Positions 54,910 through 55,157 are shown, counted from the first letter of the stretch. The stretch: 64,000 bases of DNA from Candidatus Micrarchaeota archaeon (GCA_043821365.1 JBDRCX010000006.1:512001-576000), one strand, 5' to 3'. The notes: a model not told the origin generated them from the letters alone. Numbers and translations are program-made.

Positions 54910-55157
54910 AGCCTCCGGAGGGGATTGAACCCCCGACTTCCTCCTTTCCCGCTTTTCGTAAAAGCGGGACCAAAACTAATTTGCTAATTTTTGCCCAAGG
55001 CAAAAATGGTAAACCAAAAAACCCTGGAGGGTTTTTAAACAATCAGTTTTGATCCAACTTTTTCTAAAAGTTGGTTACAAGAGAGGCGCTCTACCGTTGC
55101 ACGCCTTGCGGACAAATCTTTTACAGATCGCCGTGCAAGACTCTGAGCTACAGAGGC
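54910..55157 (-). tRNA. tRNA-Thr(UGU) with two introns: D-loop 15/16 (55097-55142, 46 nt) and canonical 37/38 (54946-55075, 130 nt)
   Basis: Spliced product GCCTCTGTAGCTCAGCGGTAGAGCGCCTCTCTTGTAAGGAGGAAGTCGGGGGTTCAATCCCCTCCGGAGGCT folds as a cloverleaf with U73. BHB-like junctions AG/A with AA/C, and UA/A with AA/A. Confidence 0.9.

Follow-up and report, generated by a model that had tools for sequence, protein, structure and literature searches.

The 64,000-nt stretch of DNA analysed here (the window) comes from a Candidatus Micrarchaeota archaeon (GCA_043821365.1 JBDRCX010000006.1:512001-576000; contig C6 of genome G000) and contains a transfer RNA (tRNA) gene, tRNA-Thr(UGU), that is interrupted by a 46-nt intron in the D loop and a 130-nt intron in the anticodon loop. 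The gene is real and apparently essential. It is probably the single functional Thr(UGU) gene of its host, losing both introns to a splicing endonuclease (EndA) of the epsilon2 type and to RtcB, with the second intron recognised through a fold in which positions 32-35 of the anticodon loop pair with the bases CGGG near the 3′ end of the intron. These four bases also form the outer 3′ strand of a terminal hairpin, H4, and the hairpin and the helix with positions 32-35 are mutually exclusive. The second intron belongs to a repeated family of hairpin-ended introns that is found in several tRNA genes of the same genome.

Gene anatomy and integrity of the tRNA

The host is an ARMAN-2-like member of the Micrarchaeota (DPANN) from groundwater, and its archaeal assembly of 1.2 Mb in 6 contigs has 36% G+C and a completeness of 87%. 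The initial annotation, made from the sequence, placed a hidden tRNA-Thr(UGU) on the minus strand with introns at tRNA positions 15/16 and 37/38, and this placement holds for coordinates, strand, anticodon and both insertion points. When both inserts are removed in silico, the exons join into a perfect 72-nt cloverleaf that ARAGORN calls tRNA-Thr(UGU). The 130-nt extent given for the anticodon intron likewise stands, as its removal yields the cloverleaf; placing this intron at 38/39 or 36/37 gives an identical spliced product. The parts of the gene are as follows (window coordinates):

55157..54910, minus strand: whole tRNA-Thr(UGU) gene, 248 nt, from G1 (55157) to discriminator U73 (54910)
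55143..55157, minus strand: exon 1 (tRNA positions 1-15), with the acceptor 5′ strand, U8 A9, D-stem GCUC, and A14 G15
55097..55142, minus strand: intron 1 (D loop, 15/16), 46 nt, with a relaxed HBh′-type motif
55076..55096, minus strand: exon 2 (16-37), with C16 GGUA, the D-stem 3′ strand, G26, CCUCU, and loop CUUGUA
54946..55075, minus strand: intron 2 (anticodon loop, 37/38), 130 nt, member of the repeated hairpin-ended intron family
55054..55074, minus strand: H1, the 5′ terminal hairpin of intron 2, CCAACUUUU-AGA-AAAAGUUGG, starting 1 base past the 5′ splice site
54969..55053, minus strand: central stem domain of intron 2, a long stem with two inner hairpins, from folding
54948..54968, minus strand: H4, the 3′ terminal hairpin of intron 2, CCCGCUUUU-ACG-AAAAGCGGG, followed by an AA tail and the 3′ splice site
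54910..54945, minus strand: exon 3 (38-73), with A38, GGAGG, variable loop AAGUC, the T arm, the acceptor 3′ strand, and U73

The joined exons have a 7-bp acceptor stem (GCCUCUG/CGGAGGC), a 4-bp D stem (GCUC/GAGC), a 5-bp anticodon stem with a 7-nt loop (CCUCU-CUUGUAA-GGAGG), a 5-bp T stem (GGGGG-UUCAAUC-CCCUC) and a discriminator U, and CCA is not encoded. The anticodon UGU lies at 55079-55077, and loop positions 32-35 (CUUG) lie at 55081-55078. The exons also contain G1-C72, C2-G71, G35, U36 and U73, which we take to be the Thr identity set for archaea. In scans of the window, the unspliced gene gives no match with ARAGORN or with the Rfam tRNA model (RF00005, gathering threshold 29 bits), and the sole window tRNA that the two tools find is an intronless tRNA-Gln(UUG) at 41594-41667 on the minus strand (Rfam, 61.8 bits).

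Further support for the gene comes from a search of 40 same-genus genomes for Thr genes. In these genomes tRNA-Thr(UGU) sits between a gene for an oligonucleotide-binding (OB) fold protein and a class I Tyr/Trp-type tRNA synthetase gene (Pfam PF00579), and the locus is intronless in four genomes (L018, L025, L027 and L028) and has one or two introns in others. The four intronless orthologues are 72 nt long and score 68.7-71.3 bits on the Rfam tRNA model; the host gene differs from them at a few paired positions only, and its first 15 nt (exon 1) are the same. The two-intron orthologue L006 becomes identical to intronless L028 once spliced. In all 28 same-genus Thr(UGU/CGU) genes spliced in silico (72 nt), the 21 cloverleaf pairs are intact, with compensatory changes across the introns at 27-43 (C-G, A-U, G-C), 6-67 and 7-66. 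Contigs from a 2016 biofilm metagenome, an independent study, match the locus exactly (four DNA-contig runs compared), and it is therefore not an assembly artefact; in this comparison contig depth is raised over H1.

In the host genome one gene was found for each of the Thr isoacceptors UGU, CGU and GGU. Each of the three has a family intron in its anticodon loop, and UGU and GGU add an intron at 15/16. The two genes outside the window are:

C2:12177-12385: Thr(CGU) gene with an anticodon-loop family intron
G000 C6:753771-753998, plus strand: tRNA-Thr(GGU) with a 74-nt intron at 15/16 and an 83-nt anticodon-loop family intron; the spliced form is called Thr(GGU) by ARAGORN

In the 87%-complete assembly, ARAGORN with introns allowed, Rfam, a pattern search and BLAST with an intronless orthologue all failed to find a second Thr(UGU) gene. 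ACA, the commonest Thr codon, makes up 47% of Thr codons in long open reading frames (ORFs). With no other Thr(UGU) gene found, this codon usage and intact exons, a pseudo-tRNA is therefore very unlikely. In one relative, G015, there are two Thr(UGU) genes, the syntenic two-intron L006 (C22) and a divergent, intronless 74-nt gene, L047 (C15). The latter may be foreign, the G015 assembly being listed with 6% contamination.

Intron 1 in the D loop

A closer look at intron 1 shows every element that had been proposed for it, with bulges AGA and AAC around a GCUC/GUGC helix that has one U-U mismatch, and a 7-bp inner helix. The central helix pairs GCUC (positions 10-13) with GUGC in 3 of 4 pairs, the bulges are cut as AG|A and AA|C in the register adopted here, and the inner helix is GUCUUGC/GCAAGGC (55141-55135 with 55109-55103). 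Because this inner helix is present and there is no conserved outer helix, the site is of the relaxed HBh′ type. The fold of intron 1 as a bulge-helix-bulge (BHB) lies only 1.1 kcal/mol above the best fold with a normal D stem.

In archaeal introns at 37/38 the central helix uses positions 32-35, which include the first two anticodon bases (PMC4090602). This register places the cut after the second bulge base, and therefore C62 of the RNA (C16 of the tRNA) stays exonic, intron 1 is 46 nt long and the D loop reads AGCGGUA. The position first given for this intron thus stands, and its length is corrected from 47 to 46 nt. The D loops are 7-8 nt in all 31 same-genus Thr genes compared, and that of L043, which has no D-loop intron, is exactly AGCGGUA and supports 46 over 47 nt. 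The homologous D-loop introns of L005 and L016 retain the motif; their inner helices are GCCUUG/CAAGGC and GCCAUG/UGUGGC, with compensatory changes, and they keep the mismatch opposite U12.

Intron 2 and its competing folds

Intron 2 folds into the 9-bp H1, a central stem of about 16 bp with two inner hairpins, the 9-bp H4, and an AA tail. The minimum free energy (MFE) is -49.8 kcal/mol, compared with -27.3 ± 3.5 kcal/mol for 200 dinucleotide shuffles (z = -6.5). In the 37/38 register the anticodon stem serves as the outer helix, the central helix is CUUG:CGGG (two G-C and two G-U pairs), and the bulges are UA|A and AA|A. The 3′ strand of this helix, termed C′, consists of the last four bases of H4 (54951-54948).

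It had been proposed that the 3′ hairpin competes with the CUUG/CGGG helix, and constrained folding bears this out. With the cloverleaf arms and a free intron, which forms the two terminal hairpins and no C/C′ helix, the fold energy is -92.0 kcal/mol. When C/C′ and its bulges are forced, the energy is -85.9 kcal/mol, a cost of +6.1 kcal/mol, and this fold has a rod-type closing helix (CUUUU:AAAAG) and a 7-nt 5′ bulge. Keeping H1 intact with a shortened H4 gives -80.4 kcal/mol. The rod is disfavoured in the host gene because the loops AGA and ACG are not complementary.

Eleven homologous Thr introns end in NNNN-AA|A, and in ten of them all four C′ bases can pair with positions 32-35. In these C′ is CGGG, CGAG, UAGG or UGGG, and the 5′ strand of H4 changes in step. 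The cost of the splice-competent fold varies among orthologues. It is 0.0 kcal/mol in L004, where this fold is already the MFE, +1.2 in L007, +1.9 in both L010 and L005, +4.2 in L052, +4.3 in L046 and +6.9 in L006, which puts the host gene at the unfavourable end of the range. In L046, C′ overlaps H4 by 2 nt only, and L039 and L050 are without H4; competition itself is therefore not a conserved feature. Of the folding switch suggested in the initial annotation, the exclusive alternative folds are borne out, both being kept in homologues, and the proposed control of tRNA maturation is not. The competition looks like a by-product of a hairpin module lying on the splice site and not like a conserved control device.

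The folds of family members were compared one sequence at a time, since alignment of ten homologous introns with MAFFT and RNAalifold was misregistered by hairpin indels and gave a nearly empty consensus. A hand check of the D- and T-loop copies of the family (Gln, C6:58268) found no consistent central-helix rule for them. Rfam in E-value mode over 54850-55250 gave only matches with E > 1 (CRISPR (clustered regularly interspaced short palindromic) repeats, microRNAs and leaders), taken as chance. A C/D box guide RNA within intron 2 was also considered and rejected, as CUGA is present and a C box is not.

Splicing enzymes

Neither intron has the pair of helices of at least 2 bp (h and h′) that marks the strict hBHBh′ motif, and both belong to relaxed types, HBh′ for intron 1 and hBH-like for intron 2. 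The relaxed-specificity endonuclease that had been postulated for such sites is supported by the host genome. A three-unit EndA of 393 aa (G000 C6:408560-409741) has two catalytic-type domains (PF01974 stretches) and an N-terminal domain (PF02778). Its residues 5-393 align end to end with residues 4-387 of the ARMAN-2 epsilon2 enzyme (PDB 4FZ2/9W2K; E = 3.5e-132), of which it is a full-length orthologue. The ARMAN-2 epsilon2 endonuclease cuts both strict and relaxed (hBH) motifs in vitro (PMC3239211), and 56% of the tRNA genes of that organism are interrupted (PMC3239211; PMC12397907). RtcB is also encoded in the host genome. Both introns are most likely cut by the host epsilon2 EndA and rejoined by RtcB.

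The RtcB match is split (L053 = G000 C6:673863-678044), with profile positions 23-50 at C6:673872-673967 and 45-426 at C6:675363-676544, and both parts sit in a single 910-aa stop-free frame. This arrangement suggests that some 1.4 kb of inserted sequence, for instance an intein, interrupts the RtcB gene. A second EndA-like protein of 163 aa (L002:1291-1782, plus strand; G000 C6:480404-480895) has a PF01974 catalytic-type domain (46.7 bits) and may be an extra subunit or a paralogue.

A family of hairpin-ended introns

Modules of intron 2, H1 among them, recur in the host genome and in relatives. Iterated nhmmer searches of the host genome recover about 32 family matches, with E-values down to 1e-26 and some 16 near full length. 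Anticodon-loop copies are found in Thr(CGU), Thr(GGU), Asn(GUU), Gly(CCC) and Ser(GCU), the last assigned from its anticodon-loop reading (ARAGORN calls the same gene Pro). D-loop copies occur in Gln(CUG), a Val gene and others, and there are T-loop copies too. A few copies lie outside tRNA exons. One full-length copy (G000 C6:717449-717579, minus strand) closely follows the 3′ end of a tRNA gene and immediately precedes the Shine-Dalgarno sequence and start codon (ATG) of the adjoining ORF, and the family is therefore not confined to introns.

Members are 100-140 nt long and share a plan in which near-palindromic terminal hairpins, X-CUUUU-loop-AAAAG-X′, flank a central stem on both sides. 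Covariation of the outer hairpin bases is free, and H4 outer stems come in at least 9 versions, all of them complementary. Most members have GG in the H1 loop and CC in the H4 loop, which makes each end an inverted copy of the other. For 15 of the 25 members folded, the MFE structure lacks the two separate hairpins and is instead a "rod", formed by pairing of the 5′ with the 3′ end. The sense strand folds better than the antisense strand in 20 of 25 members, with 77 G-U pairs, a bias that fits selection at the RNA level. Set beside transposon-like elements (MITEs or palindrome-associated elements), the family has inverted terminal hairpins in most members and some copies outside tRNA exons; no consistent target duplication was seen.

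By BLAST across the order, full-length relatives are restricted to the same genus, where G046 has five copies that are 75-78% identical to intron 2. Two sister genera and one genome from another family have the H1 module as well, and BLAST did not find the family in the other 41 of the 45 genera sampled. Within the genus, the intron core is missing through DNA-level deletion from the short homologues L017, L040, L043 and L045. In the Thr(CGU) introns of L005 (1434-1618, minus strand) and L010 (1439-1606, minus strand), about 70 extra nt, themselves rich in hairpins, are inserted in the H4 loop, so that one module sits inside another. The host tRNA-Asn(GUU) gene (G000 C6:684587-684851, plus strand) has introns at 15/16 and 37/38, both from family modules, and its positions 32-35 (CUGU) pair 4 of 4 with the 3′-hairpin end GCGG.

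Proposed mechanism and alternative explanations

In the proposed pathway, the gene would be transcribed and the exons would fold into the cloverleaf arms, leaving intron 1 to present its HBh′ site. Strand exchange, in which the anticodon loop displaces the H4 5′ strand from CGGG, would then create the hBH-like site of intron 2. For this the outer four pairs of H4 would have to open, and the enzyme would either capture a minor conformer or pay about 6 kcal/mol for the rearrangement. Cuts by the epsilon2 enzyme are predicted on the 3′ side of G15, of A61 (RNA numbering), of A37 and of the AA tail, and RtcB would join the exons into a product that reads ACA codons. The data show the gene with its exon boundaries, the enzyme genes, the intron family, and the alternative folds with their conservation and energies; the cleavages, the conformer used and the order of these steps are inferred.

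Several observations weigh against this reading. For intron 2 the predicted ground state is the two-hairpin fold, and the splice-competent one lies 6.1 kcal/mol higher. The direct inner helix of intron 2 is 1 bp, leaving the 5′ site in a 7-nt bulge or beside the junction, and the central helix of intron 1 is mismatched and its outer helix lacking. With a G-rich C′ and a pyrimidine-rich loop, 4-of-4 pairing would arise by chance in roughly 6-9% of cases per independent sequence, a rough estimate from base composition. A simple BHB scan of the AU-rich precursor singles out neither site and returns dozens of equal chance candidates, and the splice sites therefore rest on exon logic and the intronless orthologues, not on the motif alone. 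A second intron subfamily, with ends of the type A|A and including host Thr(CGU), misfits the 37/38 register with 1-2 of 4 pairs; in the 38/39 register it fits in 7 of 11 cases, mostly via G-U pairs. Lastly, an assembly that is 87% complete leaves room for a second Thr(UGU) gene, and both splicing and the mature tRNA are deduced from DNA.

The second subfamily also favours a different route, in which EndA acts on the stable two-hairpin fold and reads each site independently as a short linker, one joining H4 to the anticodon stem (3′ site) and one immediately ahead of H1 (5′ site), so that the helix between positions 32-35 and CGGG would never form. This fold is the predicted ground state of the host gene, the linker at the 3′ site, AAA, has a length of exactly 3 nt, and 5′ and 3′ sites may be independent hBH and HBh′ entities (PMC4090602). 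Yet the 5′ site would then lie in a 7-nt single strand and not between helices, and about 110 nt would interrupt the strand facing the 3′ bulge. This route has no need for C′ to complement positions 32-35, as it does through four different sequences in 10 of 11 homologues, and the most stable fold of L004 is the one with C/C′. We regard recognition of the two-hairpin fold as unlikely, though worth keeping in view. Ordered or nested splicing, which the initial annotation had also raised, would have an inner segment spliced first to leave a short intron with a proper BHB. The intron is modular, as the H4-loop inserts of L005 and L010 and the core-less homologues (L017, L040, L043 and L045) illustrate, but no inner BHB candidate rises above the chance ones, the short homologues are DNA-level variants and not RNA-level steps, and no first step is required where C/C′ can form directly. 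Nested splicing is accordingly very improbable.

The two remaining explanations concern the status of the gene and of its intron. The initial annotation had allowed for an unspliced pseudo-tRNA with Thr(UGU) supplied by another gene; here this would be a decaying gene disrupted by repeats, with Thr(UGU) provided by an unassembled gene or a modified other isoacceptor. The incomplete assembly, the copy of the repeat family outside tRNA exons at C6:717449-717579, and the second, divergent Thr(UGU) gene of G015 (L047) would be in keeping with such decay. Against it, no exon is damaged, all 21 cloverleaf pairs being retained with compensation across the introns, both inserts sit precisely at the points where their removal restores the sequence of intronless orthologues, all three host Thr isoacceptors carry such introns, and for the commonest Thr codon four methods found no other gene. 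Taken together, these points leave decay with hardly any probability. The intron could instead be kept for the sake of the excised, probably circularised 130-nt RNA, acting as a guide, protein-binding RNA or regulator. The Haloferax tRNA-Trp intron, reportedly the carrier of a C/D box guide RNA, would be a precedent, and the stable non-random fold (z = -6.5), the better folding of the sense strand in 20 of 25 members with their 77 G-U pairs, and conserved junction words such as UUAGCAAG all agree with a function. However, there is no Rfam match below E = 1 in the region searched and the intron lacks a C box, orthologues freely delete, replace or enlarge the central domain, the orthologous gene is intronless in four genomes, and loss of the intron at the locus in close relatives with no compensating copy is partly seen. 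A function of the excised RNA as the reason for its retention is scarcely credible on this evidence. Removal of both introns from a single functional gene, with the second intron recognised through the 32-35:CGGG helix, is the explanation that we retain.

A more speculative proposal builds on the inverted ends of the family. These may constitute a two-state RNA device, in which "two hairpins" hide C′ and the "rod" frees C′ for the anticodon loop, tuning tRNA maturation. The same ends may also aid spread between tRNA genes, for example through reverse splicing by EndA and RtcB followed by reverse transcription or recombination. This is a long shot. If true, it would make the two-state device a splice-dependent mobile element of a new kind, in which a few loop bases set the balance.

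Relation to known systems

The closest known system is that of ARMAN-2 (Candidatus Micrarchaeum acidiphilum), which has the same lineage-type three-unit EndA as the host (Fujishima et al., 2011, PMC3239211; Hirata et al., 2012, PMC3488258; Miyata et al., 2025, PMC12397907). In both organisms tRNA genes are interrupted at non-canonical as well as canonical positions, single genes can hold more than one intron, and relaxed hBH and HBh′ motifs occur. The introns tested from ARMAN-2 are 13 and 25 nt, whereas host intron 2 is 130 nt and highly structured; unlike them, it belongs to a multi-copy family, has inverted hairpin ends, and sets a 3′ hairpin against the central helix of the BHB.

Transposed tRNA introns were reportedly described from the Thermoproteales by Fujishima et al. 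in 2010 (Mol Biol Evol 27:2233). The subject is covered in reviews (PMC4090602; PMC4390854). The occurrence of similar introns in different tRNA genes there implies spread between tRNA genes, and the Thermoproteales and the host alike have similar introns across the tRNA genes and positions of one genome, multi-intron tRNAs and a broad-specificity endonuclease. Thermoproteales introns are mostly 12-40 nt and without terminal hairpins, in contrast to the host unit of 100-140 nt, which has inverted terminal hairpins and modules outside tRNA exons too. Hidden D-arm introns of Asgard archaea (bioRxiv 10.64898/2026.10.13.758758) resemble those of the host in being missed by standard finders, in being found via compact relatives, and in their recurrent gain and loss at orthologous loci. 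Asgard archaea are a different phylum, and the Asgard study found no copying route between tRNA genes, whereas host introns are clearly shared between genes.

The Haloferax volcanii tRNA-Trp intron, which is about 105 nt, is like host intron 2 in being longer than 100 nt, structured and located at 37/38, and it is excised via a BHB, as predicted for intron 2. Host intron 2 differs from it in having no C/D boxes or Rfam family, in being a member of a repeat family, and in being dispensable at the orthologous locus in relatives.

Relaxed motifs in multi-intron tRNA genes alongside an epsilon2 enzyme, introns shared between genes, and hidden D-arm introns are thus already known. A limited literature search, with most subscription journals outside it, found no published description of this intron family in Micrarchaeota or DPANN. 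What we have not found described is a 100-140-nt inverted-hairpin intron family that occupies many tRNA genes and positions, with a 3′ hairpin doubling as the partner of the splice helix.

These features have consequences for annotation and for enzymology. Only 18 host tRNAs reach the Rfam threshold, and most host tRNA genes are therefore hidden likewise. Standard tools find about 18-27 tRNAs in this 1.2-Mb genome and miss the sole reader of its commonest Thr codon; with intron-bearing genes missed in this way, the tRNA sets of such DPANN genomes are badly under-called. For work on epsilon2 specificity, the orthologues offer a natural substrate series, with a 130-nt multi-branched intron and an energy gap of 0-7 kcal/mol among them. 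With intronless, one-intron and two-intron states at one locus in closely related genomes, and with a multi-copy intron family, the gain and loss of archaeal tRNA introns can be followed directly.

Flanking and neighbouring features

Upstream of the gene, a reading by eye shows AT-rich words and no confident assignment of a TATA box or transcription factor B recognition element (BRE). Downstream, one feature adjoins the discriminator:

54899..54909, minus strand: T-rich tract TTGTTTATTTA directly past the discriminator, followed by a GC hairpin, as read from the sequence

The tract is likely an archaeal oligo-T terminator. In the divergent intergenic region between the tRNA and the class I synthetase gene (window 55186-55240) there are inverted repeats, CCAGATGAATCTGG and a 9-bp palindrome ACATATTAG...CTAATATGT, which may be leader or promoter-region hairpins.

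Elsewhere in the window, ARAGORN with introns allowed reports a doubtful "tRNA-Val(aac)" with a 91-nt intron at 41904-42091 on the plus strand (C6:553904-554091), and nhmmer finds partial family modules at 42231-42300 (C6:554231-554300) and 37090-37145 (C6:549090-549145). These three sites are likely to be further hidden intron-containing tRNA genes or copies of the module.

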